Positions 17,520 through 42,708 of a stretch of 64,000 bases of DNA are shown here, in pieces. The DNA is from Flavobacteriales bacterium. Its GTDB lineage: Bacteria > Bacteroidota > Bacteroidia > Flavobacteriales_F > PHOS-HE28. Location: the NCBI GenBank assembly GCA_016704485.1, contig JADJAA010000001.1, positions 1,554,824 to 1,618,823 on the forward strand. The letters are read 5' to 3'. Position numbers and translations under genes: made by a program. Under the pieces are notes generated by a model. That model ran no database searches. It had not been told where the DNA came from and worked only from the letters and a program-made list of their open reading frames with translations. Every line of letters starts with the position of its first letter. Within the stretch, counting starts at the first letter, position 1.

Positions 17520-17620
17520 GATCGTGTTGAACAACCTATGTATTGTCCTTCGTGTGATTATTGTTCAGCGCTGTATCAGTTAGCTGCGTGGCGAAGATGC
17601 GCCTAAAGTATTTGTTCAGA

Positions 17621-21273: not shown

Positions 21274-23375
21274 ATGTGCACCCACACACGCCTGCTATTA
21301 GTTGCGATCGCCATTTTTGGTCGTAGGGCTATGCACGGCGCAACAAGATGGACCAACCGAGGAGGAGCAGCCAACAATTATCACGGCGGAACAACTGCAG
21401 GACTTTAATTCGGTAGTGCCCGGCATGGGTCGACAGATCCCGGGAATATACTTGTCCAACTACGGGCTTCTGTGTTACCACTTTGGGGATGATGGCACAT
21501 TCGCATCGCGCGACTTGAATGATTCCGGTTGGGTCGCAGCCGGTTCATGGTATGCGCCCATCACGTTGCCAAAGGAACAATTGGACACTGCGCAAGCCCT
21601 GTGGGTGCGGTACCATCTTCTCTGCGACAGTTCCCTGCGCGGTAGCCCATTGACACTAAGTTTGGGATCCATTGCCGGTATTGAGATCTTTTTGAACGGC
21701 CATCGGTTGGTGCACGTCCGGGAATTGCCGCCGGTTGTTCATGATCTTGATCAACCAATTTGGGACACGCTGCGGCGCTTTACCCTACCGATCACATTCG
21801 CGTGCCAAGGCGAACCAGAAGTGCTCGCTATTCGGATAGATCCGGCAAGGAATGGAATTCCCTACCCCACTTTGCACTATACGAACTTCGCCTACAACGT
21901 ACAGCTGTCCGCGATGCACTATGGTGTCTTCATCGGGGTCAACGCCATCATCTTTTGCTCGCCTTGGTCCTCTGGTCTTTGGACCGGAATGATAAGCAGT
22001 GGTGGCTACTGGCCCTGCTGGCCTTCGTTACAGGATCAGGGTATGCGCCAAGTTGACCAGTGAGATGGGCTTGTTGGGTTTGCCGTGGCCCACCATCCAG
22101 GTCATTGGCATTATTGACAAGATCCTCCTTCTATGGCCTATGTATGTGCTTATCATGGTCTTGTGGCGCATGCTAGGTGGGTTATCAAGTCGGCGCGCCT
22201 TTTGGCTCACCTTCGGTGTCTTGTTCGTTTCGGCAACCAGCGCTGGCCGCTTGTACTTTTTCGGGAAGATCTCCTGGTCATTTTCGGAGATCACGGGGGA
22301 ATACAGCATAGATGCAGGTTTGTCCGATGATCAGTGGCCACTTTTGGTCGCACTGGTGGTTGGTGCGGTACTGCGCTATTCCATAGCGCTCTGGTTCGCG
22401 ATCGAATTGATCCGACTTGGCATTCGCCTGGTGCGTAAGAAGGGTTTCGGACGTTGGATCGGGGCAGGGGCGCTTGTGTCCAGTCTGTTGAGTTTCCTCT
22501 TGACGTGCTTCGGCCTGGTCACTGAAATACCATCTACGACATGGCTCACACTTTCCGATTATCTCGCCTATGTTGCTGTGCCGGTTTCAGTCGTCATTTA
22601 TCTGGCCGTCACTGCCGCTCAAAACAACAAGCTGGTAGCGCGTCAACGGGATGATCTTGATCGCGAGGTGGACGACCGTACCGCCGAACTTGTAGCGGAG
22701 AAACAAGCGGTGTTGCGCGAGAAAGAACGCAGCGATGAACTACTCCTCAACATCCTGCCATCCGAAGTGGCGGAAGAACTAAAAGCCAACGGTTCGGCAA
22801 AGGCGCGGGACTTCGATCCCGCCACCATCCTGTTCACCGACTTCAAAGGCTTCACGGAGCTATCCGTGCAATTAAGTGCTCAGGATCTGGTGGCCGAGAT
22901 CAATACGTGTTTCGAGGCGTTCGATGGGATAATTTCCCGGTACGGTGTGGAGAAGATCAAGACCATTGGCGATGCTTACATGGCGGCAGGTGGCGTGCCT
23001 GATCCTCTGCGCGGATCACCGGCAGGTGTTGTAGAGGCCGCGTTGGAGATGCAGGAATTCATGGTCAGGTACAAAGCGCAACGAACAGCCTTGAACAAAC
23101 CGGCCTTCGAGATGCGTCTCGGTGTTCACACCGGCCCAGTGGTGGCGGGCATCGTGGGTGTGAAGAAGTTCCAGTACGATATCTGGGGCGACACCGTGAA
23201 CACGGCCAGCCGCATGGAGAGCAATAGCGAAGTGGGCCAAGTAAACATCTCGCAGAGCACCTATGAACTGGTGAAGAACGTGCCGGGACTTGCCTTCACA
23301 TCGCGAGGCAAAATACCAGTGAAAGGGAAAGGAGAGCTGGAAATGTACTTCGTAAAGAGAGGGCCGGTCGCATAG
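21274..23375 (+). pseudogene. 7TMR-DISM-type class III adenylate/guanylate cyclase with a broken reading frame (at least 3 shifts)
   Basis: Track ORFs 21302-22063 (extracellular 7TMR-DISMED2-like domain), 21760-22056 and 21999-23375 (TM helices plus cyclase domain IKTIGDAYMAAGG...GVKKFQYDIWGDTVNTASRME) occupy three frames. The sensible protein path is: signal peptide MCTHTRLLLVAIAIF (ATG 21274, frame 1); LVVGLCTAQQ... (frame 2, shift at a T5 run near 21313); ...GVFIGVNAIIF then LLALVLWSLDRNDKQWWLLALLAFVTG (shift near 21950); then KLTSEMGLLGLPWP... (shift near 22045). Confidence 0.6.
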
Positions 23376-23476: not shown

Positions 23477-24274
23477 CTATCCACTCCACTTCACGATATC
23501 CGCCACTACCGTCTTGTAGCTCAAGCCACGCAGCCGTTTCACCACCACGATGCGGGTATCTCCGTACTGCTCTGCGCGTTCGACCGACGAGTCAGTTGGT
23601 CTACTTTCCTTGATCCCCAGCCCCGTGCGAAAATGCGACCACCACGTATCGTTGGTGAGCACCACACAGAGTTTCGGCTGTAATTCCTCCAGTTCCATGC
23701 GCACCAGATCCACGCATTCGGGTCGTTGCAGGATGCGCTCGTCCACATCCGGATTGGCCACTTCGCCACGGTTCTGCGGTGCGATCTTGTAGAGGTTGGA
23801 CCATACCAGTTGACGGTTCCATTCCCACGCGTCCTCATTTGTGATGCCGTGCCGAACCTGCATCAGCTTGACCGTGGCCTGCCAGAAGAACGATGACCAA
23901 GCGCGGTAGTTCTTCTCCCGTTCGGTATACCAGGCTTGTTCTTCCGGGCTACACTTGTTCAAGGTAGTGTTCGTCCACAACACGTTCACCCAATCCAACG
24001 GGGAGTGGTCTTTGAAGGGTTCGTTGGAGTAGCGCTTGCTCTCTTCTATGCGGCCCCTCGGTACTGCCTTCGTGAAGTCCCACTCCGGGTGCCAACCACC
24101 CACGGCCTGGCCGTAGACCAGCACATCAACCGGTTCATTCGTTCGCGTACCGATGCTCGGATAGAAGTCTGTGAAGTGGGTGCGTTGCGGAAAGGTGCGC
24201 GCCAGTCGACGTTGAAAGGCTTCCAAGTGTTGCTGGTAGGCGGCGTTATAGGTTGGTGAGAGGGTGCGATACAT
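23477..24274 (-). CDS. Hypothetical 266-aa protein lodged between hsdS and the hsdS remnant
   Basis: ATG at 24274 (MYRTLSPTYNAAYQQHLEAF...). The longer track ORF to 24451 runs out of frame through the hsdS 3' end. There is no confident family. VDVLVYGQAVGGW faintly resembles UDG-superfamily motif 1, but this is unverified. Confidence 0.6.
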   Translation of the reverse strand: MYRTLSPTYNAAYQQHLEAFQRRLARTFPQRTHFTDFYPSIGTRTNEPVDVLVYGQAVGGWHPEWDFTKAVPRGRIEESKRYSNEPFKDHSPLDWVNVLWTNTTLNKCSPEEQAWYTEREKNYRAWSSFFWQATVKLMQVRHGITNEDAWEWNRQLVWSNLYKIAPQNRGEVANPDVDERILQRPECVDLVRMELEELQPKLCVVLTNDTWWSHFRTGLGIKESRPTDSSVERAEQYGDTRIVVVKRLRGLSYKTVVADIVKWSG

Positions 24275-24302
24275 TATGTCCGTGCTGCGTGATCCTCTTC
24301 CG

Positions 24303-25448
24303 TTAGTTCCCCAACTCCCCCCGGAACGCCCCCTGCAACAAACTCCCGAACAAGCCCTCGCTCTGGTGTAAGCTTGCTGCAATGCAGGTGCGCTGCTTTT
24401 GGATGTTATGGAGTAATGTTCCGAACCGTTCCTGCGCTTTGAGTGGAACAAGTGGAATACGCATTCTTCGGATCTCTTCTGTTGTGATATTCTTGAAGAT
24501 GGCTCCCACCGACTTATCGCTGACCCCTACGGCGAGCATATTCAGATAATGGTAAATGAACCTCAGGTCAAAGCCTTTGTCAAAGTCACGAAATCCTGCA
24601 AATCCATCGTGTATGCAACAGTCGACCATCAGGATCGCTGGCAGGCCTGGCTTCCCACTTACAGCCATCACCAAGTCACCACGTTTCATTGGACGACTGC
24701 GCTGTGAGCCTTCAATCGTGAGTGAATCGATCTGAGGTGTCACATACATCCCATCACGGGTCAAGTCTGCAACCATTAGGCGAGGCACGGGACCTCCAAA
24801 GTATCGCGCATCACCCTGTGGTCTTGGACTGCTCCCACGGACGACCTCACACAACGAACCCAAGTCTACAGTTTCCCACCCCCTCTCATTCCGCACCGGA
24901 TCCCCGAACAGCTCCAAGAACAGGCTCTTGGCAAGTTGGTCGTAAACCGCCAAGGTTCGCCGGTCGTTGGCCACCAGCGCCTGCGCCTTGTCCAAGATCG
25001 CCGCGATGCGACGCTGCGTGGGGAGGGCGGGCGGAGCAAAAGGTAAGCTGCGGATATCTTCTATCTTGAAGCCTTTCACCGTCGCTCCGTTTCCACGCGA
25101 AATGAAGTAATTCTCTTTCGCAAATAGAAAGTAATAGAGATAGGTCTGGTCAACCTTGCCATTTATAACAAGCGCCTTCAGATCCTGATTGAATGCCATC
25201 GGCACGTTCGTGATCGACATGCGCCCAAGAGCCATGCGTGTTGCAATCAATAACGTTCCGGCTGGAACTATCTGTGTCGCACAATTATCTACACCGCGTT
25301 CAGTGATCGACTCGTACGTCTCCGAAATATGCTTTGATGTAAGATCCTTCACCGTAGCCCATGGGACATCACCTTCCCAATAGCCCTCGATATCGCGATT
25401 AGGAGTACCACCACCAAGTATCTGGATATAATTGCCCAGCACGCTCAT
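24303..25448 (-). CDS. hsdS: Type I R-M specificity subunit
   Basis: 381 aa with two TRD halves, each followed by a conserved helical spacer (...LPTQRRIAAILDKAQALV... and ...LKAQERFGTLLHNIQKQR...). 4-nt ATGA overlap with hsdM. Confidence 0.9.
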   Translation of the reverse strand: MSVLGNYIQILGGGTPNRDIEGYWEGDVPWATVKDLTSKHISETYESITERGVDNCATQIVPAGTLLIATRMALGRMSITNVPMAFNQDLKALVINGKVDQTYLYYFLFAKENYFISRGNGATVKGFKIEDIRSLPFAPPALPTQRRIAAILDKAQALVANDRRTLAVYDQLAKSLFLELFGDPVRNERGWETVDLGSLCEVVRGSSPRPQGDARYFGGPVPRLMVADLTRDGMYVTPQIDSLTIEGSQRSRPMKRGDLVMAVSGKPGLPAILMVDCCIHDGFAGFRDFDKGFDLRFIYHYLNMLAVGVSDKSVGAIFKNITTEEIRRMRIPLVPLKAQERFGTLLHNIQKQRTCIAASLHQSEGLFGSLLQGAFRGELGN

Positions 25449-27004
25449 TTCAACAACGCCTCCAATTCGTCCAACAATTTCACACGGTCGGCGGCCAATT
25501 GGCGCAGGCCGGGTTCTCCCTTTTTGCCGTTGATCAGCTCGGCGGGCGTGGCATACTTCACTTGCTCGTACACCACCTCCTTGTAGCGGTTTATGCTGAG
25601 GTCCCAGTTGTTGGCCTTCAAGTCCGCAAAGGGCACCAGAAAGCTCTGGTCGGTTCGTGCACGTTTGCTTTCACCTTTCGCACCGAAGCGCGCTAGGATG
25701 TCGGCGATGTTGCTTTTCTCGTGCAGCGTTTTCGCTCCCTTGGTGGGCTCGGTGTATTGGAGTTCAAGCTGTTCTTCGGTGAGTTGCGGTGTGCGCTTAT
25801 CATCCAACGAGAAACCGTCGGCACGCATGTCGTAGAACCACACGTTGTCGGTACCGCCGCTATCGGTCTTGGTAAAGATCAGCACCGCGGTGCTCACCCC
25901 TGCATAGGGTTTGAATACGCCGCCGGGCATGCTGATCACCGCTTGCAATTGCTGGCGTTCGATCAGTTCCTGCCGCAGTTGCTTGTGCGCCTTGCTGCTG
26001 CCGAAGAGCACACCATCGGGCACGATCACAGCTGCGCGGCCACCTGTGCGGAGCATGCGCAGGATCAGACCTAGGAAGAGCAACTCGGTCTTCTTGCTGC
26101 TCACTGTGCGCAAGATCGCAGGGTCCACAGCGTCGTGGTCCAAGCTGCCTTTGAACGGCGGGTTCGCTAACACCAGCGAGAAGCGCTCACTGATGTGGCC
26201 TTGCTCTTTGCTAAGCGCATCCTGCCCGATCAGTTGCGGGTGCTCAATGCCGTGCAACATCATGTTCATGGCACCAATGCGCAACATGCTGGAGTCGAAC
26301 TCGACCCCGGTGAAGAGGTTGGTGTTGTAATGCTCGCGGAACTTCTTCTCGTGGAAGCTGTCCGGGTGCGTGCGCCGTATCTCTTCGCTTGCCGCCACCA
26401 AGAAACCGCACGTGCCGGCACTGGGATCGCAGATGGTATCGGTGGGTTGCGGAACCATCAGTTGCACCATCATGCGGATGATGTGGCGCGGTGTGCGGAA
26501 CTGGCCGTTGCGTCCTGCCGTAGCGATCTTGCCCAGCAGGTATTCATAGAGGTCGCCCTTGGTGTCGCGGTCGGCCATGTCCAGCGCGGCGATCATTTGC
26601 ACGGCGCGGTCCAGCAACCGCGCGGAGGGGATCATGAACGTAGCACCCTTCATGTGCTCACTGAACACGCTGCCCTCGCGCCCCATCTGCTTCATGAAAT
26701 CGAAGACCGTGAGGTTATCGTTCTTCGCATCAGGCCGCGTAAAGAGCGCGAACAATGTATCCGGGTCCTTGTCCTTGAAACTGCTCCACCGCAACGCCTT
26801 GTACTTGGGCGGGTAAATGGGATCCTTGATGGGCCCACCGAGCTTGGCGCTCTGCTTCTCTTTGGTGGTCTGGATCTCATCCATCCGGCGCAAAAAGAGC
26901 AAGTAGGTGATCTGTTCGATAACCGTGAGCGGATTGGCGATGCCGCCAGTCCAGAAGGCCTCCCAGAGGCGGTCGACGTCGGAGCGGAGTGTTCCGTTTA
27001 TCAT
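25445..27004 (-). CDS. hsdM: Type I R-M DNA methyltransferase subunit
   Basis: HsdM N-terminal domain. FRTPRHIIRMMVQLM, motif I ICDPSAGTCGFLV and motif IV VLANPPFKGS are all intact. Confidence 0.92.
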   Translation of the reverse strand: MINGTLRSDVDRLWEAFWTGGIANPLTVIEQITYLLFLRRMDEIQTTKEKQSAKLGGPIKDPIYPPKYKALRWSSFKDKDPDTLFALFTRPDAKNDNLTVFDFMKQMGREGSVFSEHMKGATFMIPSARLLDRAVQMIAALDMADRDTKGDLYEYLLGKIATAGRNGQFRTPRHIIRMMVQLMVPQPTDTICDPSAGTCGFLVAASEEIRRTHPDSFHEKKFREHYNTNLFTGVEFDSSMLRIGAMNMMLHGIEHPQLIGQDALSKEQGHISERFSLVLANPPFKGSLDHDAVDPAILRTVSSKKTELLFLGLILRMLRTGGRAAVIVPDGVLFGSSKAHKQLRQELIERQQLQAVISMPGGVFKPYAGVSTAVLIFTKTDSGGTDNVWFYDMRADGFSLDDKRTPQLTEEQLELQYTEPTKGAKTLHEKSNIADILARFGAKGESKRARTDQSFLVPFADLKANNWDLSINRYKEVVYEQVKYATPAELINGKKGEPGLRQLAADRVKLLDELEALLK

Positions 27005-27017
27005 GGGGTGAAGATGG

Positions 27018-28226
27018 TCAATGTTTGGTGATGGTGGTAAATTCCCATTTAGACTGTCCGTTCAGTTCGACTTGTTTGACTTGGCCGGAAACGAGGTCGC
27101 CATCCACAAGGCTGTGTAGTTTTATCAGATCCTTGTTGATGTAGGCATCGCCAGCATGGGCGTAGGTGTTATCGTTGCGTTTCTTGACCACGACGCGGCC
27201 CAGTTCTTTGGTATCACCGTCGAGTAGGGGAACTCCGTCGCTGCCTACCGCTTCCTCGTGTAGCCAGGTTCGGTTCGCCTTGGGGTCTGGATACTTTGCT
27301 GCGAACTTCTTGAACCAGACCAACACGTCCATGAGCTGGAACACGATGGTGCTCAAGAGGTAAGGCGTTACACCATGCTCGTGTAGTGCTTCGAGATTGT
27401 CCAAGCTGTAATTGGAATCCTCAGCGGTCTCGTCCGCATGCGAGCTTTCGCTGGTTACCCGCAGAATATTGTCCAGTGCATCGGCAACGATCCGGGGCAT
27501 CATCGGGCGGTCACACTTCAAGGCCACCGTGGCCGAAGAACGGCTCGGATAAAGCACGCGCTCGCCCCGCAGGAACAGTGCTGACAAGCGTTGGTTGACC
27601 CTCGGCTTTACAAGGACATCGGGTAGTAACCCGTGCCGATGCGCGGCATAGAAGAAGTGCTCCACTACCTGACGCAAAGGATTCATGAATAAGCGATCAC
27701 TACCGGACTTGTCCCCGCGATCCACAAAGCGCAATGCGTCCATGAACATAGGGTCGGCAACGGCATCCAAATAAGGAACTTGGAGCACTGCGAACACATC
27801 GGCATACCTATCACGAAGCGCTTGCTCGTTGCTTCGATCAACAAGGCTCTGTAGTTCCGCGTATAGGTCCTTCTCGTTCCCTTTCAAGTACCGCCGCTCA
27901 TCACGACGGTTCTTTGTTGCACCTTCGTCAAAGCCGGTATTGATCACATACGGAATATGAATGTTCGCTCCTTTCCATTGGTCCAGATCCCTGCGGGCTT
28001 CATGCAGGTGGTCGATGTCCTCGGTGGGTGAATGTTCATCCACCTGCCCTCTGGCATCGAGGATCAAGGCTTTGAAACGCTTTTCTCGGATCGGTTCCTT
28101 AGCCTCGGCCCAGGTCTTGAACCAAGTCACTTCGAAACCGTGCGCGACCGCCTTAGCAATTTGGGCTTTGGCGTATGCTTCATCGTCATCTACTAAGGCG
28201 ATCGGAACCAGGTCAAACAGTGTCAT
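27018..28226 (-). CDS. Receiver (REC)-domain protein with DUF4145/HEPN-like middle domain and C-terminal beta-rich domain
   Basis: ATG 28226 gives MTLFDLVPIALVDDDEAY...FKALILDARG...IPYVINTGF, a REC-like acidic pocket, Asp and Thr. The middle region NPLRQVVEHFFYAAHRHG ... LDNILRVTSESSHAD parallels RRALERTVHWLY ... YIRRTGNAAAHDK in the HsdR N-terminus (Rx4-6H). 14-nt overlap with the upstream kinase gene. Confidence 0.6.
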   Translation of the reverse strand: MTLFDLVPIALVDDDEAYAKAQIAKAVAHGFEVTWFKTWAEAKEPIREKRFKALILDARGQVDEHSPTEDIDHLHEARRDLDQWKGANIHIPYVINTGFDEGATKNRRDERRYLKGNEKDLYAELQSLVDRSNEQALRDRYADVFAVLQVPYLDAVADPMFMDALRFVDRGDKSGSDRLFMNPLRQVVEHFFYAAHRHGLLPDVLVKPRVNQRLSALFLRGERVLYPSRSSATVALKCDRPMMPRIVADALDNILRVTSESSHADETAEDSNYSLDNLEALHEHGVTPYLLSTIVFQLMDVLVWFKKFAAKYPDPKANRTWLHEEAVGSDGVPLLDGDTKELGRVVVKKRNDNTYAHAGDAYINKDLIKLHSLVDGDLVSGQVKQVELNGQSKWEFTTITKH

Positions 28227-30909
28227 GCGAAATGGGAAGGTCAATGGTGAAGTGGACAAACATTTGAGTGGATACAGCTTCCCGGTCAAATGGTATCCAA
28301 TGATTCTCGTCTATACGTTGATCGCGTTCAAAACTCGATCGGTACTTGTCATCGCTCACTGGCAGGTTACCCGACACGAACTTTCCGCCGTGGTTGGCAA
28401 TGATCCGATCGATCAGATAGCCGCCTATGCCATTGCCCTTTTTCATGTCCAGACGCTTGCCAAAGGTGATGAAGTGCTCATGGGTAAAACCTTCCGGAAA
28501 GGGTTTGCCGTTGTTCTCGATGGTGATAACCAATCGCGTTCGTTGAGGTTCAATACGCGTTGATACCCTCACCCGTACGACCAATTGTTCCTGATCCGAT
28601 CGAAGGCCGTGTTTGGCCATATTGATGAACAAGTTCTGGATGACAAGTGCGAACTGTTGTTGATCGACATGTGCGATCACTCCTTCAGTGGTTTCTAGTC
28701 CAGCTTCACATTCGAAAATGACCATAAGCGCTTTCACCTGGTCGGCAAGTCCGCGCAATTCCGTTCGGAACAGTCGACGAAGGTCGATGGGCACTGGTCT
28801 TAGACTCTCCTTATCTGATCGGATCACCGCATTGATCAATTGAAAGAGACCGCGCATGCGATCCAATCCACTATTCATTGTATCTAGGGCGGTGGTGATC
28901 GTAGACTTTTCAACTGGGCCCAAACTGTTGAGTACTGCATGGATCTCGGCCATGGGTTGCTCCAGAAGCGCCACCACCGGGCGGAAGCTGTGCTCCACTG
29001 CACCAAGGATCTGCCACTCATCAGTGGAGAGGCCATGCTGTTTTTCCTGCCTAGCGATCTCCTCCTTCTTCGCCAATAGAATGGATTCCTTCCGTTCGCG
29101 AACAATGCGCAGTTGATCCTTGAGTTCGGGTAAGCGAACCCGAATTCTCAGAACGTCTGCTTTGGCTATGAAAGCGATCGTACTTCCTTGGTGGTATGCG
29201 TCGAGCTGATCTTGGATCGTGGGCGTTCTTAGTTCTGTTGCGAGGTATTCGGTATTAGCACGAGCCGCATCCACACGGAACATGAATACATTGCTTCCCA
29301 CGGCGATCGGTCCATCTACCGGGTCGAATAAGGTCGGCTTCAACTTTCCGCCCACCCGTGCAAGTAGCAGTGCTGGCACATCCAATCTCTTCAGTCCCTT
29401 CTTGACAGAACCGGTTTCATGTTGCCCATCACGCGCCGTGCGCCTCATGTCGAGGACATCCGTTGAAAGCTCGGAGACCTGGAAGAGCGGCAGACCGGCG
29501 AGGTCGCCCATGGAGAGGATATCGTCCGAAAGCACGGTGCCGAGTTCAACCACGTCCACACCATCCGCTTCGGCCACGATATGGGCTTGTTGAAGCAGGC
29601 TGGCAAACCGACTCATGCTCCAAGACACATGCTCGTCGGAACGGATGTCAGAAACCTTCACGTCCAAAACACCTTGTAAGGTATAAGTGCTATCCAACGC
29701 CTGCAGCACGCTGCTAACATCGAGTGTTATTTCGGATCGCGTCTTGTATGTGACATGCAAACCCGCATCCACGAATCGGACAGGCGCATTCGTTGGCCGT
29801 GATCCATTCAAAACAATGATCGAGGTCTTTATCCCTGAGTAGGGTGTGAAGGATCCTGCTGGCAACGAGATCACTGCTTCGAGCAACCCTAGGTCAAGAA
29901 TCTGTTTGCGTAGATGCGCTCTGTTGATGCCGAACAACATACTCTCGGGCACAAGGATCACCGCCTTCCCCTCGGGTGCAAGCCGCTTGAGGATCTGGTT
30001 GATCGCTATCTCATAGGGTTCTATCGCGCGTAGCCTTCCTTCCTCTTTCACTCGACCACCGAAAGGTGGTGCACTAATGCAATGCGTATACTTCTTGTTG
30101 GAAGCACCGGGTGCTGATGGTTCGTTCAAGGCGGCGTTCAGGTCTGCCCCGAGAATACGTGCTTGCAGCGTATTGAAGAAGAATGCGAATTGGTTGAAGA
30201 ATACCGCGTCGAGCTTTACAGAATGTGGCGCACGCGCTGCGAGCACTGCTGGCAATACGCTCGCATCCGCAGCTGGGTCGAATACCTCTTCCACGTCTCC
30301 GAGCAGCCGCGCCATAAGCATTGCAACGGACCATGGCGTACAGAACTGGCCCATGTGACTATCGCGCAAGAGGAGGCTACGCATTTCTTCCACATACTCG
30401 ATCGGTTCCAAACCCGCTGATGCCATGAGAAAAAGCTCAGTTTGTACTGGGCTTGTTGCCAGTGCGCCGCCATTTTTAAGAAGATACGAATGCTGCTCCC
30501 CAAAGTCCTTAAACTCCTCTGCCAATTCATTCAAGGTGGACCATAATCCTTCTCCTCTTTGAGCGATCGTAGGCAACACTCCTGCTGGGCGCACGGCCAA
30601 GGCATAAATGAGTGCCAGCTCCAAGCCAACGGTCTGCGCGAAGGGCATGGATCGTAGCGCATTGCGCAATTCCCATGCGTGGGCCTGAAAAAAACGGACC
30701 CGGTTCAACATACGTTCTGGATCCAACTGTAAACTACCGTCATCGGATATACTAACACGCCCACCAGACAACTCCACCTCAGCAAGCAAGCTCGATGGCT
30801 CAACGTCCTTCTGGCTCAATAAGACCTTGACGATATTACAGACACCCTCCAAAGTATCCGAGCCGTTCTTCAGGCGAAGGGCACATATTATGGCGTCTAT
30901 CAGTTTCAT
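28213..30909 (-). CDS. Chimeric sensor histidine kinase: HsdM-like N6-MTase fold (degenerate motifs) + HsdS-like TRD + DHp/HATPase_c
   Basis: MTase-like: GQFCTPWSVAMLMARLL, VFDPAADASVLP (motif I lacks GxG), HCISAPPFGG (Ala where N/D/S is expected), KAVILVPESMLFG...LLEAVISLPAGSFTPYSGIKTSIIVLN. TRD-like: VELGTVLSD...LLLARVGGKLKPTLFD...VGSNVFMFRV...YLATELRT. Kinase: H-box GAVEHSFRPVVALL, N-box VIQNLFINMAKHG, ITIENNGKPF, GNGIGGYLIDRII. Confidence 0.7.
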   Translation of the reverse strand: MKLIDAIICALRLKNGSDTLEGVCNIVKVLLSQKDVEPSSLLAEVELSGGRVSISDDGSLQLDPERMLNRVRFFQAHAWELRNALRSMPFAQTVGLELALIYALAVRPAGVLPTIAQRGEGLWSTLNELAEEFKDFGEQHSYLLKNGGALATSPVQTELFLMASAGLEPIEYVEEMRSLLLRDSHMGQFCTPWSVAMLMARLLGDVEEVFDPAADASVLPAVLAARAPHSVKLDAVFFNQFAFFFNTLQARILGADLNAALNEPSAPGASNKKYTHCISAPPFGGRVKEEGRLRAIEPYEIAINQILKRLAPEGKAVILVPESMLFGINRAHLRKQILDLGLLEAVISLPAGSFTPYSGIKTSIIVLNGSRPTNAPVRFVDAGLHVTYKTRSEITLDVSSVLQALDSTYTLQGVLDVKVSDIRSDEHVSWSMSRFASLLQQAHIVAEADGVDVVELGTVLSDDILSMGDLAGLPLFQVSELSTDVLDMRRTARDGQHETGSVKKGLKRLDVPALLLARVGGKLKPTLFDPVDGPIAVGSNVFMFRVDAARANTEYLATELRTPTIQDQLDAYHQGSTIAFIAKADVLRIRVRLPELKDQLRIVRERKESILLAKKEEIARQEKQHGLSTDEWQILGAVEHSFRPVVALLEQPMAEIHAVLNSLGPVEKSTITTALDTMNSGLDRMRGLFQLINAVIRSDKESLRPVPIDLRRLFRTELRGLADQVKALMVIFECEAGLETTEGVIAHVDQQQFALVIQNLFINMAKHGLRSDQEQLVVRVRVSTRIEPQRTRLVITIENNGKPFPEGFTHEHFITFGKRLDMKKGNGIGGYLIDRIIANHGGKFVSGNLPVSDDKYRSSFERDQRIDENHWIPFDREAVSTQMFVHFTIDLPISHDTV

Positions 30910-30971
30910 GCAACGGGGGTCAAAGTAAGCGGTGGAGGGTTATGGTGTAGATGTGTTTGCAGGTTATGATC

Positions 30972-32234
30972 TCAAGCGACTTTCTCCAGTCGGTTTGTCG
31001 GCAGAAGTTGGGCAGCCATACGATCCATGACCTCCCATTCCGGACGTGTGTACGAGTTGCTCTCCGTGACCACCGGGATCCTGAATTCGCCCATGGCATC
31101 CTCGCGCATAGCCCATTGATCCTTCTGGTCGTAGAGCTTTGTTCCGGGCAAAAGCATCAGCGGCCAAGCCTTAACGTCCCTGCAGCCTTTGGATAAGAGG
31201 TGGTCGATACTACGCTGGAAACTTTCCAAGGTCTGTCCGGGCAACCCGTAGATCAAACTCACTTCGAAAGGAATCTCGCGCTCCACAAGCTGTTCAATAG
31301 CAGCATCGACAAGATCCATCCGATTGGCGCGGTCAATTTTCTTGGACACTGCATGGTCCGTGGTCTGCAACCCGAACTCCAAGTGGAAGTTGGCTTGCGT
31401 ACAAAGGTCCAGGAATGCATTAACCTGTTGGCCTCGGATATTCTCAAAGCGCGATTGCAGGGTGAAGGTGGAGCGCGTACGGAGTTGAACGATCTCTTGC
31501 ATTATATCCAGGCACTCCTTCCCAGCGTTGAAGATGGGGTCGAGTATGTTCACGCGTTGCACACGATGTTCAGTGAGAAATGCTAACTCTTTAAAGACTT
31601 TATCCAGTGGGTGCTTATGCACGCGGTGAGTGGCGAGGTCGCGGTGTGCGCAAAATGAACACCGGTAGGGGCAGCCGCGTTTGGTCTCCAACCGTACCAT
31701 ACCGGCTCCCATTGGTACAGGCAATTCGCCAGTGAGATACGGTGAGGCCAGTTGTGTGAAGTCCACTGGTACGTTCACGAACACGGGTTCGTCGGCATCG
31801 AGATGGTCCGTCAATTCGGCAAAGGCTTGTTCGGCTTGTCCGGAGATGAAGACCTGGCAATCCGGATACCGACGCAGCAATTCTGCTCGGTTCCCGTAGG
31901 TGACTTGATACCCTCCGAGGACCACCTTGCCAAGGAACCCAAGACGACGAAGCAATGCGATGATGCCATTGGTGAGGTACTCGTTCCAGATGTAAGCCGA
32001 GAGCGCGATGGCGTTAAAGCGGCTCACATCAAGCGCCGCGAGTTGCACTTCGAATTGCTCGGGTGTGGCCGTGCCGCCGTGTTCGAGCATGTTGATCGAG
32101 AGGTGTTCCACGTGCATCTGTCCACGCAGCCGTTCATTACTCCGTTGGTGTGCCAAGAGAGATGCGATCGCCAAGGGCTTGGTGATCTCACCGTGCCGGA
32201 TCAGGTCGAAGGATATGATGAGCGTGTTCGTCAT
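30972..32234 (-). CDS. Radical SAM enzyme with N-terminal B12-binding-like domain
   Basis: ATG 32234 (MTNTLIISFDL...). Rossmann-like N-terminal domain VVLGGYQVTY. CxxxCxxC cluster in ETKRGCPYRCSFCAHRD. Confidence 0.8.
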   Translation of the reverse strand: MTNTLIISFDLIRHGEITKPLAIASLLAHQRSNERLRGQMHVEHLSINMLEHGGTATPEQFEVQLAALDVSRFNAIALSAYIWNEYLTNGIIALLRRLGFLGKVVLGGYQVTYGNRAELLRRYPDCQVFISGQAEQAFAELTDHLDADEPVFVNVPVDFTQLASPYLTGELPVPMGAGMVRLETKRGCPYRCSFCAHRDLATHRVHKHPLDKVFKELAFLTEHRVQRVNILDPIFNAGKECLDIMQEIVQLRTRSTFTLQSRFENIRGQQVNAFLDLCTQANFHLEFGLQTTDHAVSKKIDRANRMDLVDAAIEQLVEREIPFEVSLIYGLPGQTLESFQRSIDHLLSKGCRDVKAWPLMLLPGTKLYDQKDQWAMREDAMGEFRIPVVTESNSYTRPEWEVMDRMAAQLLPTNRLEKVA

Positions 32235-32343
32235 TGGTCCTCGCCACCAAGGGTCTATATGGTTGGATAATCGCTCAACCAACGAACTTCCCTATGGCAA
32301 CGGACCAAAAGTCCCGGTCACCTGTGCAGTCTATCTGCACAGT

Positions 32344-33354
32344 TCATTTCGCGTAGTTCTTCTTCATTTCCATCACCCGCAAAAGCAGCGCTTGGCGTAG
32401 TTCTTCCGGCGCAATAACCTGTAGCCCTTCTCCATAAGATAACAACAAGGCTTGTAGCTCGTAGTTCAGCTTCACTTCTAAACGAATAGTCGCGCCGCCG
32501 TCTTTTCTCTTCACTACTTTCTGCGAACCGTGTATAGGCTTTGACTCCAAATAAGGCCAAAGTCTATCCGTGACTTGGATCTTGACAACAACAGCTTCTT
32601 GATCCGCAGGTACACTTACACCAACAACATCCTCAAAATACTCCGTGAAATCCACCTCATCGTTCGGTATGTATTTCACCTTACTGGGTACAATATCCCG
32701 GATCCGGTCCAAGGCCATATTGACAATACGCCCCTCTTCCTCAAGACCAAAAACAAACCAACGGTTGTTATACTGTTTCAAGTAATACGGATGGAGCAAC
32801 ACAATGCTAGGCGCATTTTGCTTGAAGCCTTGGTAAGATATTTCCAAGGCTTGCTCATTGATGATCGAATGAAATAATGTGGTAATGTGCTCGGCACCTT
32901 TCAAATACGGGTTCTGCTCAAACTCGATGACCTGAGCAGCCCCTTGTTTCAGCCCGAAACCAGCTTCCAACCGAGCAACTAATTCATCTACCCATTCAAA
33001 CTGCGGCATGCCCTTAAATCGGCTCAGCGTTAAGAGCGCCTCCTTCAATTGTTCCGCTTCGCTCTCGTTCAGCGGTCGCTTGTTGATAGAGAATTCAAGG
33101 TCACTGTACCGGTAAAAAGTACGCTTTCCGTCTTTGTGTTTCTCCAGCGGGATAGCCCATCCTTGTTCGCTCTCCATGTACTTGATGTCCTCGAAAACTT
33201 GGCGGCGGCTGATGCTTGCACCTGCTCCGGTGAACTCCTCCAACGCCATGTTGCAAGCTTCCATCAGGTCTTCGATGAAATACTCGCGCCCACGGTTCGC
33301 AAAGCAACGGTCCATTGTCTGATAGCGAATAAGGGCATTCTTATTTACGGGCAT
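32344..33354 (-). CDS. WYL-domain transcriptional regulator (BrxR/CapW-like layout: wHTH + WYL + C-terminal domain)
   Basis: N-terminus MPVNKNALIRYQTMDRCFANRGREYFIEDLMEACN. WYL core VLLHPYYLKQYNNRWFVFG...NMALDRIRDIV. It is the first gene of the minus-strand operon. Confidence 0.8.
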   Translation of the reverse strand: MPVNKNALIRYQTMDRCFANRGREYFIEDLMEACNMALEEFTGAGASISRRQVFEDIKYMESEQGWAIPLEKHKDGKRTFYRYSDLEFSINKRPLNESEAEQLKEALLTLSRFKGMPQFEWVDELVARLEAGFGLKQGAAQVIEFEQNPYLKGAEHITTLFHSIINEQALEISYQGFKQNAPSIVLLHPYYLKQYNNRWFVFGLEEEGRIVNMALDRIRDIVPSKVKYIPNDEVDFTEYFEDVVGVSVPADQEAVVVKIQVTDRLWPYLESKPIHGSQKVVKRKDGGATIRLEVKLNYELQALLLSYGEGLQVIAPEELRQALLLRVMEMKKNYAK

Positions 33355-33489: not shown

Positions 33490-33904
33490 CTGCCAGCTGG
33501 GTGGTAACCTGCACCAAGCTTGATGGTACCACACACCAAGCTTAGTGGTACCCTGTGCCAAGCTTAGTGGTACCTTGCACTAAGCTTGATGGTACCCTGC
33601 ACTAAGCTTAGTGGTACCCTGCACTAAGCTTAGTGGTACTCTGCACTAAGCTTAATGGTACCCTGCACCCAGTTGGGTGGTACCCTCCACCCAGCAGGGT
33701 GGTACCCTGCACCCAGTTGGGTGGTACCCTGCACTAAGCTTAGTGGTACCCTGCACTAAGCTTAGTGGTACTCTGCACTAAGCTTAATGGTACCCTGCAC
33801 CCAGTTGGGTGGTACCCTGCACCCAGTTGGGTGGTACCCTGCACCCAGTTGGGTGGTACCCCGCACTAAACTTAATGGTACCCGACACCAAGCTCAATAG
33901 TGCA
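33490..33904. repeat. Tandem array 1: about 19 contiguous 22-bp units, each carrying a 14-bp palindrome plus GGTACC
   Basis: The units are CTGCACTAAGCTTAGTGGTACC (core CACTAAGCTTAGTG) or CTGCACCCAGTTGGGTGGTACC (core CACCCAGTTGGGTG). Units at 33597-33728 are repeated at 33729-33860 as a 132-bp (6-unit) higher-order repeat. Edge units are degenerate. Confidence 0.95.
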
Positions 33905-33993: not shown

Positions 33994-34202
33994 CTATACC
34001 ATACTACTATAGGGCACATTGAACCTTAGTCTGGACTTCCGCCTTCGGAACTGCATTCGCTGCCAGATGATCATTGGGGTGCAATTATCCCAAACCTATA
34101 CCATATTACTATAGGGGGCATAAGCCTCCATCTCCGGCTCGTGAACTTTGGAGGTAAAGATGGTGTGATTTGACCTACTACCTATACCATATTACTATAT
34201 GG
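33994..34202 (+). promoter_or_regulatory. Three dispersed copies of a 21-bp element CTATACCATA(T/C)TACTATA(G/T)GG
   Basis: Copies at 33994-34014, 34096-34116 and 34182-34202, with starts 102 and 86 bp apart, all in the same orientation. Two copies end in ACTATAGGG, identical to positions -6 to +3 of the T7 promoter consensus. Function is unknown. Confidence 0.5.
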
Positions 34203-34291
34203 TGCTTTGCACCGTGCGCCTCGTGGTGCACACTTGTGGTTCAGAACTGCTTCATGTAGGCCTGGTGCAAGAGGCTGTATTTGTTCCATTG

Positions 34292-34753
34292 GTACATGGC
34301 CTTGTCCCGTAAGTACATGTACTTGTGCCTTTGGTACATGTACTTGTCCCGTGAGTACATGTACTTGTCCCGTAAGTGCATGTACTTGTCCCGTGAGTAC
34401 ATGTACTTGTCCCGTGAGTACATGTACTTGTCCCGTAAGTACATGTACTTGTCCCGTAAGTACATGTACTTGTGCCGTTGGTACATGTACTTGTCCCGTA
34501 AGTACATGTACTTGTGCCGTTGGTACATGTACTTGTGCCGTTGGTACATGTACTTGTGCCGTGAGTACATGTACTTGTGCCGTGAGTACATGTACTTGTC
34601 CCGTAAGTACATGTACTTGTGCCGTTGGTACATGTACTTGTCCCGTAAGTACATGTACTTGTCCCGTAAGTACATGTACTTGTCCCGTAAGTACATGTAC
34701 TTGTCCCGTAAGTACATGTACTTGTGCCGTGAGTATGTGTACCTGTACCATGT
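34292..34753. repeat. Tandem array 2: about 22 contiguous 21-bp units built on the palindrome GTACATGTAC
   Basis: Units are GTACATGTACTTGTCCCGTAA, with variants ending ..GTGCCGTTG, ..GTCCCGTGA and ..GTGCCGTGA. Adjacent units form GTACATGTACTT-GTCCCGT-AAGTACATGTAC, a 12-bp stem with a 7-nt loop. The period is a multiple of 3, so all six frames appear open. Confidence 0.95.
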
Positions 34754-35042
34754 GTAACGATACTTCAAGTTACAGTACACTTACTTGATACAGAGGTGCT
34801 TATGCCATTGCGTGGGGTATGCCTGCTTGTAACACGGGGACTGATAACCCACTCAGCGTCAGGCGTAAAGAGTGATCCGAACGTTGCCCGTGCTGCATAA
34901 CCCATCCTCGAGCGGCCGCGTGCGGGCTACAGTAAATGAAAAGAACCCCGGCCAGTTGTGCTAGGATTCTTCCGTTCGGGGATGGTGTATGAGTGGCAGG
35001 GTCGTCTGCTATGCGGCAGACTGACCCTGAGCGGGTTTAAAA

Positions 35043-35457: not shown

Positions 35458-36426
35458 TCAAGCCTTTATGAACTCGTTCACAAAAGCTTGTACAAATTGC
35501 TTGGCTAAAGCAGAGTAAGGCTTGGTCGGCTCTGTCAGTTGCATCAGCAATTCCACCTCTTGCTCGATCATCGCCTCAATTGTTCCTGTGGTCTTTTTTA
35601 CAAGTTTGTTCAATGTACGTGTTGGTACTTTATCCTTGAATGATCTGATATCCTTACCGATCTCGTTCGATAGGTCGATCAATTTCAAGATCATCTCAAA
35701 ACGCATTTTTAATCGCAGAATGTATTCTCTGCGCATATCGACCAACCCCTTTCTATTCAAGCCGTAGATCTCAATGGAACGGATCGCTTTTTGCCAATGG
35801 ATCTCCCTTTTTATCACGTTCTCTGATGAGGGCAAAGCAATGGCCTTCATTACTCCTGAGTCATCGTATTCCAAGTATTTGCTAGGTTCGTCCGTACAAG
35901 GGTTCAACAACAAACATTGTTCGCCTGAAATATCGAACAGCGGCGCACTCGCACGCATTGTTTCATCAAACAATGGAAAAGAGTTTGCCTTTCCTTGTTT
36001 TAGCTTTTTCCATTGATAGGACCCATCTATGGGGTTCTTTCGATACACATATTGATAGCGCGCTCTATTGCAGTCTATGCATGAAGGGAGTAGATTATCC
36101 CATTCCATTGCGAGCTTAGCATATACACCTACTTTAGTTTCGGTCTTGTTCGTCAATTCTACGAGCACTTCGGATTTGGGTCTGAAATGCTCAATATCCA
36201 GCGGTTGTGTGCGCGTGTAAGGTGATTCGCAATATGCACATTTACCATGGAACATAAGCTCCAACAACTCAGGCACTTTTTCGTGCTTGTAAAGCTTGAA
36301 ATCGGGCTTTAGGTCCTTGTGGAAATCGCTTCGAAGCCATGCTTCCACCTCTTCCTTTTCTTTGTTGAAGGCATCCGAGGTTATGGTAAGTGCCTGCGGG
36401 GCATTTACGCGTTTTCGTTTGATCAT
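35458..36426 (-). CDS. PtuB-like HNH endonuclease (TIGR02646-type)
   Basis: HGKCAYCESPYTRTQPLDIEHFRPKSE...WDNLLPSCIDCNRARY, followed by LLLNPCTDEPSKYLEYDDSG. It starts 8 nt downstream of the ATPase gene. Confidence 0.75.
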   Translation of the reverse strand: MIKRKRVNAPQALTITSDAFNKEKEEVEAWLRSDFHKDLKPDFKLYKHEKVPELLELMFHGKCAYCESPYTRTQPLDIEHFRPKSEVLVELTNKTETKVGVYAKLAMEWDNLLPSCIDCNRARYQYVYRKNPIDGSYQWKKLKQGKANSFPLFDETMRASAPLFDISGEQCLLLNPCTDEPSKYLEYDDSGVMKAIALPSSENVIKREIHWQKAIRSIEIYGLNRKGLVDMRREYILRLKMRFEMILKLIDLSNEIGKDIRSFKDKVPTRTLNKLVKKTTGTIEAMIEQEVELLMQLTEPTKPYSALAKQFVQAFVNEFIKA

Positions 36427-36434
36427 TGAAGAGC

Positions 36435-40638: not shown

Positions 40639-40766
40639 TTTTGATCCAGTGCGTACTGATCACTTATAGAGATCTTATGATGCCAGTACTATCGGTCAGA
40701 AATGCATTGACTTGCCACCACATTATTGTGATGGCTCATGGTCGAATGGAACGTAAATCTGTGGAG

Positions 40767-41864: not shown

Positions 41865-41884
41865 ATACTTTTCAGTTCAATTAT

Positions 41885-42676
41885 TTAGACTTCTACACCA
41901 TAAGATTCCGTGAACGCCGCTTCAGCGTATGATTTGCTGGCGTAAGCAAACCCTTTGTCTCCCCACAGAGTGGTTCCCCAACTGTTTCGCACGATGAAAT
42001 GATCAGGCGTGTATCCGACAATAGAGACAGCGTGGCCACCTAGGTTGTCGCTGGCACGGTAGCGCGCTAGTTTGCCCCGTGTCTCTTTCGCATCCATAAA
42101 GGCGTTGTCACAGTTCAGCCGGGTGAGAATGGGGCCTTTGTTGGCGATCCAGCGCCGCCATTCATTCAGGTCTTGGCCTAATGAGAAGTAGCGCATCACC
42201 TTCAACTGCGCAGCAATCGCGTAGAACACATCGGTCTCATCCGGATAGAGTATTCCGCGACCGAAAGGCAACACGCTATCCAGCACTGCGCCGTATTTGC
42301 GCGATACATCGAGTGCTGCTTTCAGACTGGTTCCATCGCTTTCAATGAATGAGGTTGGTTTGTCGGTGAATTCATCGATCTCCTTTGCGGCCATCCATGT
42401 AAAGCGCGTGCTAAGCCTACGGTTGGTGGCGATCCTTCCGGCTTTTGCGAAATGCCAACGCAGCACACCTTCGGCGCAAGCCCAGCCAACGCACGAGCCG
42501 GTACTTCCTTGGTCGCCAATGGTCCACCAATCTTCTCGCAAGTCTTTTTTAGGCGGAGGTGGTGCTGGTGCGCGTAGTGCGCCAGCGGCACGTGCTGTGT
42601 GCAAGTTCCAATCGTTTGCGGTGTTCAATGAAGGAAGGCAATTGAGGACGCGGGGAGGTGATTTCTTTGTTGCCAT
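41885..42676 (-). CDS. Papain-like C1-family cysteine peptidase (no signal peptide seen)
   Basis: Catalytic motifs DQGSTGSCVGWA (Cys), GGHAVSIVGY (His) and VRNSWGTTLWGDKGF (Asn). Confidence 0.8.
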   Translation of the reverse strand: MATKKSPPRVLNCLPSLNTANDWNLHTARAAGALRAPAPPPPKKDLREDWWTIGDQGSTGSCVGWACAEGVLRWHFAKAGRIATNRRLSTRFTWMAAKEIDEFTDKPTSFIESDGTSLKAALDVSRKYGAVLDSVLPFGRGILYPDETDVFYAIAAQLKVMRYFSLGQDLNEWRRWIANKGPILTRLNCDNAFMDAKETRGKLARYRASDNLGGHAVSIVGYTPDHFIVRNSWGTTLWGDKGFAYASKSYAEAAFTESYGVEV

Positions 42677-42708
42677 TTTTTTGAGGAATTTGTTGACTTA
42701 AGCTTCGT

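Follow-up and report, generated by a model that had tools for sequence, protein, structure and literature searches.

A histidine kinase with methyltransferase- and specificity-like domains embedded in a type I restriction-modification locus of a Flavobacteriales bacterium

What could a two-component signalling pair be doing inside a type I restriction-modification (R-M) operon? This question is raised by seven genes packed on the minus strand at positions 23477-33354 of a 64,000-nt stretch of DNA (the window) from contig JADJAA010000001.1 (GCA_016704485.1) of a Flavobacteriales bacterium. By its gene content, the locus is an EcoAI/EcoEI-like type I R-M system in which a sensor histidine kinase, along with its response regulator, is embedded between a WYL regulator and hsdM, and the same kinase/regulator arrangement recurs in type I R-M operons across many Bacteroidota. 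Profile searches and structural modelling indicate that the kinase, a protein of 898 residues, does join on one chain an HsdM-like methyltransferase (MTase), one target recognition domain (TRD) and a coiled coil to the core of a histidine kinase. The analyses described below establish how its domains are arranged, in what state the motifs are, and that the gene pair is conserved and co-varies. As to function, we tentatively favour a type IB-like R-M system carrying an alarm arm, in which the kinase would act preferably as a decoy or guard and the regulator as an effector, whose outcome, growth arrest or abortive infection, would back up restriction.

The kinase fusion as a putative sensor

An original prediction on this stretch had described seven minus-strand open reading frames (ORFs) packed like an operon. 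Our ORF scan recovered all seven at the same positions, and the recomputed spacings, read from the WYL gene through those of a radical S-adenosylmethionine (SAM) enzyme, the kinase, the regulator (the REC protein), HsdM and HsdS to an orphan ORF, are 109, 62, -14, 13, -4 and 28 nt, in exact agreement. Profile searches against Pfam, PADLOC-DB 2.0.0 and NCBIfam 20 also upheld its domain calls for WYL, radical SAM, HsdM-like/TRD kinase, REC, hsdM and hsdS. The kinase and the regulator are divided as follows.

28213-30909, minus strand: kinase fusion, 898 aa (PDB profile, AF2, Foldseek, invariant residues)
30724-30909, minus strand: kinase residues 1-62, winged-helix-like N-terminal domain (model secondary structure)
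29590-30366, minus strand: kinase residues 182-440, HsdM-like Rossmann domain (19-member alignment)
29125-29562, minus strand: kinase residues 450-595, single HsdS-type TRD (PDB profile, PADLOC Specificity_I)
28216-29124, minus strand: kinase residues 596-898, HsdS-like helix, DHp domain (His640) and CA domain (AF2, HK853/EnvZ/CpxA, HATPase_c)
27018-28226, minus strand: response regulator, whole gene, 402 aa (ORF scan)
27873-28226, minus strand: regulator residues 1-118, REC domain; its start overlaps the kinase stop by 14 nt
27267-27869, minus strand: regulator residues 120-320, helical output domain, presumed effector
27021-27263, minus strand: regulator residues 322-402, S1/cold-shock-like OB fold (Pfam, model beta-strands)

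Three lines of analysis agree on the nature of the kinase. A profile of the family compared with PDB sequences matched HsdM at residues 179-451, the TRD of HsdS at 543-636 and the kinases HK853, EnvZ and CpxA at 631-853. Within it, the TRD part matched 5ybb_D and 3okg_A as well as PADLOC Specificity_I, and Pfam detected HATPase_c (1.7e-8). The AlphaFold2 (AF2) model (pLDDT 78.7) displays, in this order, a small N-terminal part of winged-helix type, helices resembling HsdM_N, a Rossmann domain, the TRD, a long helix, DHp and CA; helices 596-625, 629-662 and 665-697 are followed by an alpha/beta domain, and the long helix 596-625 runs directly into the DHp helices. In Foldseek searches, this model retrieved at rank 1 a Vibrio vulnificus M.S methyltransferase on a single chain, whose structure was determined together with the DNA mimic Ocr (7eew_A), followed by further HsdM chains and then by HK853. 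The phospho-accepting H640, the N box (N763/H767) and the G1 (N799/G801) and G2 (G827/G829) boxes are invariant in 19/19 aligned family members. The fusion as such has no model in Pfam, PADLOC-DB or NCBIfam, and RefSeq labels it 'N-6 DNA methylase' and the REC protein 'hypothetical protein'.

The MTase-like part keeps D211, P212, A214, D215, P281 and P282 invariant in the same 19 members, and its motifs I and IV are degenerate. Motif I reads DPAADASVLP in the window and DPAAD(A/S), devoid of glycine, in the family; motif IV reads SAPPF in the window and S(A/K/I/V)PPF in the family, the catalytic Asn of NPPF being gone in 19/19 and the base-binding PPF retained. The kinases of two related loci, L015 and L017, are in the same degenerate state. 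Because of these motifs, and because such changes are reported to abolish AdoMet binding and catalysis in EcoKI (motif mutagenesis by Willcock et al. in 1994), we infer a loss of activity and call the domain a pseudo-methyltransferase. The distant fusions of locus L008 and of plasmid pFM-G13 retain NPFAG.GSFG together with NPPF or NPPL, L008 having NPFAGLGSFG and NPPF.

Two other parts of the fusion evolve in their own manner. The N-terminal domain is the most variable among close relatives, with 11-36% identity to the window against 38-65% in the MTase-like part, and it has no DNA match in L017, a locus that is 91-93% identical in the adjoining blocks. No similarity was detected between the kinase TRD and the TRDs of the adjacent HsdS, so that we rejected the idea of a copy of the neighbouring specificity. 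Moreover, this TRD is 82% identical between the window and locus L005, while the HsdS proteins of the two are only 36% identical. The proposal that the kinase reads DNA through an MTase-like/TRD module was thus right as to the presence of the module; that it does so in the way of an R-M core is complicated by the degenerate motifs and by a TRD that does not track HsdS.

Histidine kinases dimerise. A dimer of the fusion held by DHp would therefore take the form of a full M2S1 methyltransferase that has a pair of TRDs and in which both catalytic pockets are dead. We propose that the kinase would be a cytoplasmic sensor, whose M.S-like dimer would survey the interface between DNA and the R-M system and would be triggered either by foreign DNA or by a phage anti-restriction DNA mimic targeting M2S1 complexes. 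Changes in the TRD and the coiled coil would then pass straight to the His-bearing helix and switch the kinase on. For the dead-MTase subfamily, we would prefer the DNA mimic as trigger. The support for such a decoy or guard is circumstantial: motifs I and IV are dead throughout the alignment, the TRD appears independent of the HsdS specificity, the N-terminus is hypervariable, and the best structural match of the model is a complex with Ocr.

On the other hand, the kinase could sense the state of DNA directly. It would bind its own site, flip the target adenine into its MTase-like pocket and fire on unmodified DNA, the REC effector replacing or supplementing HsdR. This is essentially the mechanism of the original prediction, and we consider it unlikely. 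It would account for the retention of a full M plus TRD architecture with its PPF, and it fits relatives with intact motifs, since fusions of the L008 type, with SAM-binding and NPPF motifs, could mark their own sites. It would also agree with the lack of a nearby hsdR in L001, L003 and L005 and with L004, which keeps only what looks like an 89-aa remnant of this gene, so that M, S, kinase and REC genes can persist without R. However, motifs I and IV are dead in the subfamily of the window, and the kinase TRD is unrelated to those of HsdS and stays conserved while HsdS diverges. Nothing obvious marks the host copies of the kinase target, and a direct sensor would therefore be expected to activate itself.

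The response regulator as a putative effector

The REC protein carries a canonical receiver domain, as the original prediction had it, with a non-DNA-binding output. The active-site set of the receiver is invariant (acidic D13-D15, phospho-acceptor D57, T97 and K115). The C-terminal 80 residues form an OB fold, detected by Pfam as S1CSD-TOTE-2 in 19/23 members (best 2.6e-6) and as Rho_RNA_bind in 17/23, with OB_RNB matched in distant members and beta-strands at residues 322-401 in the structural model; this fold probably binds RNA or single-stranded DNA.

Between the two lies a helical output domain of about 200 residues, which matched nothing in Pfam, PADLOC or NCBIfam, none of which has a model for it. 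Pfam scans of 23 and then 50 of its members returned nothing usable, and Foldseek against BFVD was uninformative; the REC protein as a whole has no PADLOC match at all. R185, E189 and H263 are nonetheless invariant in 50 diverse representatives of the domain. When its profile was searched against 1.84 billion cluster representatives, it returned 847 with E<=1e-3, of which 419 reach E<=1e-10. Almost all of the 847 are about 300 or about 400 residues long with the domain at about 120-320, which corresponds to a receiver followed by the domain, with or without the OB fold.

The original prediction had called this protein HEPN-like, and this is not established. DUF4145, a HEPN family described as an N-terminal domain of R subunits (PMC3710099), aligned by hhalign with the output domain such that S262-H263 falls on the His of RRTGNAAAH in the HsdR of the window (aligned motif RxxGNxxAH), at E 0.16 and 0.03 and a probability of at most 2%; one of 23 regulator members matches DUF4145 at E 0.082. 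We take this as a weak hint at most.

We propose that the phosphate of His640 would be transferred to Asp57 of the regulator, and that this would free the output domain to act on RNA, leading to growth arrest or abortive infection as a second line behind restriction. The conserved R, E and S-H residues, together with an OB fold of the RNA-binding type, suggest that the output domain could be a metal-independent RNase-like effector.

The same OB fold feeds another possibility, namely that the pair tunes the R-M system without killing the cell, by restriction alleviation or by control of expression after DNA damage or entry into a new host. The regulator would then be an RNA-binding antiterminator or translational regulator acting through its OB fold. 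Response regulators with RNA-binding outputs do exist, as in the ANTAR family. The pair of the window immediately precedes hsdM within one predicted transcription unit, its output has an S1/CSD/Rho-like RNA-binding fold, and one source labels a family member 'cold shock CspA family protein'. We nevertheless regard such a purely regulatory role as distinctly unlikely. The invariant R185, E189 and H263 belong to the helical domain, which occurs even in the members of about 300 residues that have no OB fold, and look more like an active site. In addition, transcription control is already covered by the WYL regulator, the pair of plasmid pFA12 is convergent to the R-M genes instead of upstream of them, and the cassette-like replacement and fast divergence of kinase core and effector described below are typical of conflict genes.

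Several observations nonetheless weigh against our preferred alarm arm. On the sensor side, relatives of the L008 type keep apparently active MTase motifs, and the ancestral role of the fusion may have been linked to methylation and not to a decoy; as for foreign DNA as trigger, direct sensing of unmodified DNA would risk self-activation because the MTase is dead and the TRD unrelated to HsdS. On the effector side, the output domain matched none of the known nuclease families and its alignment with DUF4145/HEPN is not significant; the Arg at the position expected for an Rx4-6H motif is not conserved, R185 and E189 being invariant elsewhere. Binding to RNA is not universal in the family, given the members of about 300 residues devoid of an OB fold, and the role of a response regulator that binds RNA may just as well be regulatory as toxic. 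Finally, the defensive two-component system Detocs, to which we return below, has a standalone buffer receiver, DtcB, and the ORF scan revealed none in this operon.

Taken together, these proposals would make the kinase a new class of cytoplasmic sensor of nucleic acids or immune evasion, in which a pseudo-M2S1 dimer drives a phosphorelay towards a new effector family (the 847 representatives) and type I loci guard themselves. That all of this holds jointly seems doubtful to us, if worth considering. The strongest form of the sensor proposal would have the system also read or write a new radical-SAM-dependent DNA mark. If true, a histidine kinase with a methyltransferase/specificity input would represent a new route of infection detection and a new kind of two-component input, an R-M complex, or its dead copy, being wired directly to a phosphorylation switch. 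A role would also be assigned to a large family of unannotated effector domains. The occurrence of the arrangement on plasmids of cultured strains (pFM-G13 and pFA12) makes it directly testable.

Conservation of the pair in related loci

Our census of gene contexts rests on about 15 loci. L001, from a Flavobacteriales metagenome-assembled genome (MAG), has the order WYL-rSAM-kinase-REC-hsdM-hsdS (rSAM for the radical SAM gene), and L003, L004, L005 and GCA_041443025 have the same order with an extra DUF2130 gene ahead of rSAM. L006 has no rSAM, and its operon closes with an HsdR bearing an N-terminal DUF4145. The distant members (L008, L011, L018, L019, pFM-G13, pFA12 and L010) have identities of 22-33%. 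L008 reads WYL-RmuC-828-aa fusion-REC-hsdM-YhcG-x-hsdS-UDG-RhuM-hsdR and L011 reads WYL-900-aa fusion-REC-hsdM-x-hsdS, whereas the short contigs L018 and L019 carry the fusion and then REC. Plasmid pFM-G13 of Myroides odoratimimus encodes WYL, an 818-aa fusion (N6_Mtase, Methylase_S and HATPase_c), a 388-aa regulator and hsdM-hsdS-x-PLD-hsdR; on plasmid pFA12 of Fulvitalea axinellae, the kinase/REC pair is convergent to an M-S-AAA-x-R cluster. The L008 fusion aligns with the family of the window across MTase, TRD, DHp and CA at E 7e-45. Separately, L010 encodes a WYL protein and then, at 798-3725, a 975-aa protein with the output domain at about 701-888 and no Pfam match elsewhere; here another sensor may share one polypeptide with the output domain.

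The kinase fusion lies immediately 5' of the REC gene in about 15/15 non-redundant loci, down to 22-24% identity. Type I M/S genes adjoin the pair in all 11 loci with enough flanking sequence, on the same strand in 10 and convergent in pFA12. L015 has a different 824-aa MTase and an S-like gene beside the pair, and the contig of L017 stops within hsdM. Kinase, REC and rSAM genes are syntenic in eight loci, all of the dead-MTase subfamily, and kinase, REC and hsdM/S in more of them; the synteny on which the original prediction had staked its proposal is therefore found. The named relatives are all Bacteroidota, as is the host, judged by its T9SS sorting domains, PorG and BamA. A word-indexed search returned only about 20 kinase homologues, against the 847 clusters of the full output-domain profile search. 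Scans with one or two short peptide patterns, which understate the family, found only the Flavobacteriales MAG among genome contigs, six loci among metagenome contigs and no kinase/REC locus among viral contigs.

Kinase and regulator also change together. Over the close loci, identity is 77-87% for HsdM and 75-85% for the radical SAM enzyme, and falls to 30-61% for the kinase and 22-76% for the REC protein. The kinase of L004 (P0012) is 65% identical to that of the window in the MTase-like part, with 28% in the TRD, 10% in DHp and 23% in CA, and its REC partner is 28% identical. The H-box itself differs by subfamily (HSFRPV, HRLGTPL or HQLNNRL), so that entire kinase cores have been swapped. 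L017, compared with window positions 26661-31582, is a mosaic at the DNA level. Blocks of 91-93% identity (3' end of rSAM, MTase-like segment, OB-fold/hsdM junction) alternate with others that either cannot be aligned or reach 64%, namely the kinase N-terminus and a stretch that starts in the C-terminal part of the TRD and takes in kinase core, REC and output domain. Each of these two has been swapped between operons that are otherwise nearly identical, and between its conserved flanks the signalling core has thus been replaced as one cassette. The 14-nt overlap, the adjacency, the co-variation and the joint exchange are evidence for a cognate and fast-evolving pair.

One could also assume that WYL, rSAM, kinase/REC and hsdMS are independent defence genes that accreted in an island without any functional link. 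The window is indeed a dense island (PsyrTA, GmrSD, Septu and a Pycsar-like cyclase), the slot after hsdS gathers unrelated cargo (Uzume, Tiamat, toxin-antitoxin pairs, PLD, RhuM), and the rSAM gene is found independently elsewhere. We find this scarcely credible: pair and hsdM stay adjacent over identities that range from 80% to 22-24%, on plasmids as well as chromosomes, and in different bacterial orders; moreover, the genes overlap or are 13 nt apart, and the input module of the kinase is itself derived from HsdM and HsdS. The tight packing of the genes, as originally described, is borne out, and the unit is conserved, its order recurring on independent contigs with protein identities of only 22-80%. 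The chosen starts fit the lengths of homologues (420 aa for the radical SAM enzyme, 402 aa for the REC protein and 265 aa for the orphan ORF), G+C is even over the block (50-56%), and a weak consensus scan of the minus strand revealed nothing resembling an intrinsic terminator in the intergenic gaps.

The R-M core, the accessory genes and comparison with known systems

The rest of the locus comprises the following features.

32344-33354, minus strand: WYL regulator, at the operon head (Pfam WYL and WCX)
32322-32342, no strand assigned: palindrome CTGTGCAG-TCTAT-CTGCACAG with 8-bp arms, in the 109-nt spacer that separates the stop of WYL from the start of rSAM
30972-32234, minus strand: radical SAM enzyme, class-B-like, facultative (Pfam, PADLOC PDC-M51A)
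25445-27004, minus strand: hsdM, active-looking (N6_Mtase, HsdM_N, PADLOC MTase_I)
24303-25448, minus strand: hsdS with two TRDs (Methylase_S); ATGA overlap with hsdM
23477-24274, minus strand: orphan accessory ORF, 265 aa, cargo; 59% identical to an ORF in L001
23387-23454, no strand assigned: second copy of the hsdS 3' end, 68 nt, 82%; first copy at 24310-24377
17621-21079, minus strand: hsdR (Pfam, PADLOC REase_I, motifs)

The three type I genes look canonical and active. HsdM (N6_Mtase 1.6e-57 and HsdM_N 3.8e-12 in Pfam, MTase_I 1.7e-168 in PADLOC) has the intact motifs DPSAGTCGF and NPPF. HsdS shows Methylase_S in two stretches and many Specificity_I models, which correspond to two TRDs, and is only 31-39% identical to its counterparts in other loci, as variable specificity would predict. 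HsdR is composed of an N-terminal DUF4145/HEPN domain, HSDR_N, PD-(D/E)xK, ResIII, Helicase_C (SF2) and EcoEI_R_C (PADLOC REase_I 2.7e-160), with Walker A, DEAH and D..EAK motifs present; its NCBIfam score for the EcoAI/FtnUII family is 242 against a curated cut-off of 550, so that the subfamily assignment is approximate. This HsdR is 49% identical to that of L008 and 82% identical to the one closing the L006 operon, and for this latter reason we assign it to the system. The block of seven genes is therefore not the whole unit, since its cognate hsdR lies beyond it.

About 3.2 kb separate hsdS from hsdR. In other loci this slot holds Uzume, PD-(D/E)xK genes, RhuM, a UDG-like gene, PLD, toxin-antitoxin pairs or Tiamat; in the window it is occupied by the orphan ORF together with a pair of genes on the plus strand, one at 21302-22063 and the other, for a Pycsar-like cyclase, at 21999-23375. 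The orphan ORF, counted as an operon member by the original prediction, is better seen as inserted cargo because the duplicated 3' end of hsdS lies just past it, as if recombination had taken place at the hsdS terminus. Its match to Pfam UDG is below cut-off (E 0.098), and BLAST relates it, with an E of 0.01, to a UDG-like gene that fills the equivalent slot of L008 (11051-11812). These sub-threshold signals are consistent between the two loci and give a weak hint of the UDG superfamily. The plus-strand cassette 21302-23375 encodes a 253-aa ORF without matches and a 458-aa class III nucleotidyl cyclase (Guanylate_cyc 7e-56, Pycsar PycC 1.2e-15, and a weak SMODS-associated 4TM match in its N-terminal half), which may be a fused Pycsar-like cyclase/effector. 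In L004, the 89-aa ORF at 12055-12324 is 57-64% identical to the first 28 residues of HsdR and is followed by two Xre/RES pairs and Tiamat TmtA; it has the appearance of what remained of hsdR once other defence cargo had taken its place.

The WYL protein, with an N-terminal region ahead of its WYL (Pfam 3.3e-10) and WCX (1.7e-11) domains, stands at the operon head in 9/11 loci with upstream sequence. Its orthologues are 56-68% identical, and 31-48% in the distant L008 and L011. A profile of seven orthologues weakly matches chains of PafBC, CapW and BrxR (E 1e-3 to 0.08 for CapW and BrxR). We propose that it would control the transcription of the entire block; the original prediction saw in it a putative repressor. 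An alignment of seven upstream regions disclosed no shared operator. The palindrome at 32322-32342 is a possible operator or attenuator.

The radical SAM enzyme (Radical_SAM 3.3e-13 in Pfam, CPYRCSFC motif present) was called mechanically from a TTG at 32282, and we chose the ATG start. Its B12-binding match of 6.7e-4 (19.9 bits) is below the Pfam cut-off of 32.1, its best NCBIfam match, KedN5, is far below cut-off, and its closest solved structures are the cobalamin-dependent C-methyltransferases CysS and TokK. PADLOC PDC-M51A matches it at 6.6e-117 over positions 6-413 of 420. PADLOC showed no other PDC-M51 component in the window or the related loci, and the name PDC-M51 is in no paper that we found; with the radical SAM gene alone matching, we rejected the whole block as PDC-M51. 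A clade of 69-85% identity sits in this operon type, and homologues of 45-57% identity stand alone in other defence islands. The gene is missing from L006, L008, L011, pFM-G13 and pFA12. It thus was not upheld as an integral part of the operon, and by its distribution is a facultative accessory, an optional add-on.

This gene suggests a further reading, in which the dead MTase/TRD would present a flipped base to the radical SAM enzyme, which would add to it a carbon methylation or another radical modification as a second self-mark, and the kinase would report on this mark. All 8/8 loci with rSAM fall in the dead-MTase subfamily against 0/5 distant ones (L008, L011, L010, pFM-G13 and pFA12), the enzyme (75-85%) is more conserved than the kinase, and its nearest solved relatives are C-methyltransferases. 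Still, we judge such a modification module very unlikely: L006 has a dead MTase and no rSAM, the homologues of 45-57% identity are alone beside unrelated defence genes, the B12-domain match is sub-threshold, and the correlation comes from closely related loci that are phylogenetically non-independent.

The R-M block sits in a chromosomal defence island, which includes PsyrT/PsyrA (6850-10223, plus strand), a 1610-aa DEAD and UvrD fusion with DpdF/GajB-like matches (10664-15496, minus strand), a GmrSD-family enzyme (15720-17534, minus strand) and Septu PtuA/PtuB (35458-38822, minus strand). The 1610-aa protein was discarded as a part of the system: it is not homologous to the helicase of about 1825 aa that follows the operon in L001, L003, L004 and GCA_041443025, itself TmtA of Tiamat, a separate known system. 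Other neighbours are DinD (5740-6642), an IS1182 transposase (50712-52367) and, from about 55900, housekeeping genes (BamA, NAD kinase, MurI, PorG). Past Septu, a minus-strand run at 38824-43362, where G+C falls to 44-48%, encodes a 604-aa protein with a C-terminal amidohydrolase, a 365-aa ORF without matches, a papain-family peptidase and an SH3+CHAP protein. Upstream of the WYL gene lie two tandem arrays, at 33501-33894 (22-nt unit GTGGTACCCTGCACCAAGCTTA, 17.9 copies, with a 132-nt higher-order period) and at 34292-34746 (21-nt unit GTACATGTACTTGTCCCGTAA, 21.7 copies, 91% matches); the latter gives rise to spurious overlapping ORFs at 34182-34790 and to low-complexity Pfam matches. Both were set aside as regulatory parts, since neither precedes the WYL gene of L005 or that of L006. 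Between the two, around 34000-34200, a motif of some 23 nt (CCCTATAGTAATATGGTATAGGT), in part palindromic, occurs three times at spacings of about 80-105 nt; these copies could be candidate binding sites for a regulator.

How does this locus compare with described systems? The original prediction knew of none joining phosphorelay, DNA recognition and an R-M core. In the libraries and papers searched, we likewise came across no description of the combination as such, but it would be too strong to say that nothing comparable exists. Detocs is a defensive two-component system in which a kinase and a REC-effector pair bring about abortive infection (10.1101/2023.01.24.525353). The system proposed here would share with it abortive infection and exchangeable effector domains (10.1101/2023.01.24.525353). 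However, DtcA senses by TPR repeats and the kinase described here by an MTase/TRD module, the DtcC effector is mostly a PNP ATP nucleosidase while our regulator has no PNP domain, and Detocs, which comprises neither DNA recognition nor R-M components, has no link to R-M genes whereas the present pair adjoins type I M/S genes. No Detocs model was among the best 25 of the 61 PADLOC matches of the kinase, the presence of such models in PADLOC-DB 2.0.0 being unconfirmed. Nothing relevant emerged when full texts were searched for fusions of kinase and methyltransferase or for two-component pairs within R-M loci, and a 2025 review of R-M biology makes no mention of histidine kinases or two-component systems.

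The sensor itself resembles single-chain M.S enzymes and the type IIG, ISP or BREX PglX-like fusions (7eew, BpuSI, BrxX), which have MTase and TRD on one chain and provide the best structural matches over about residues 180-640. These are active MTases, some with nuclease or helicase parts and none with a histidine-kinase core, whereas motifs I and IV are degenerate here. MADS is likewise a multi-gene system with type I-like M/S, kinase and ATPase functions and a regulator (10.1101/2023.03.30.534895). Membership was rejected, as HsdM and HsdS matched the MAD2 and MAD5 models at 95.5 and 28 bits against cut-offs of 720 and 400, and the mandatory MAD6-8 were unmatched among the window proteins scanned. 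With BrxR and CapW, the WYL protein shares the WYL+WCX architecture and the position at the head of a defence operon; the profile similarity is weak, and no conserved operator was found upstream here. EcoAI and EcoEI, which are IB-like, have the same canonical hsdM/S/R and an HsdR with EcoEI_R_C and N-terminal DUF4145 (PMC3710099), but these classical systems have no kinase/receiver pair, WYL or radical SAM gene.

A last parallel can be drawn with the guardians of R-M systems, PrrC and PARIS, the prrC gene being an accessory inside a type I locus (PMC12707154). No sequence similarity to either was detected in the present system. Like the arm envisaged here, PrrC/EcoprrI lies within a type I locus, is proposed to respond to the inhibition of restriction and attacks RNA, as a second line of defence (PMC12707154). 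PrrC differs in being a single ABC-ATPase/anticodon-nuclease held latent by the R-M complex, without any kinase, receiver or M.S-like decoy. If our preferred alarm arm is correct, the kinase and its regulator would thus constitute a second guard of type I restriction, alongside PrrC and PARIS.

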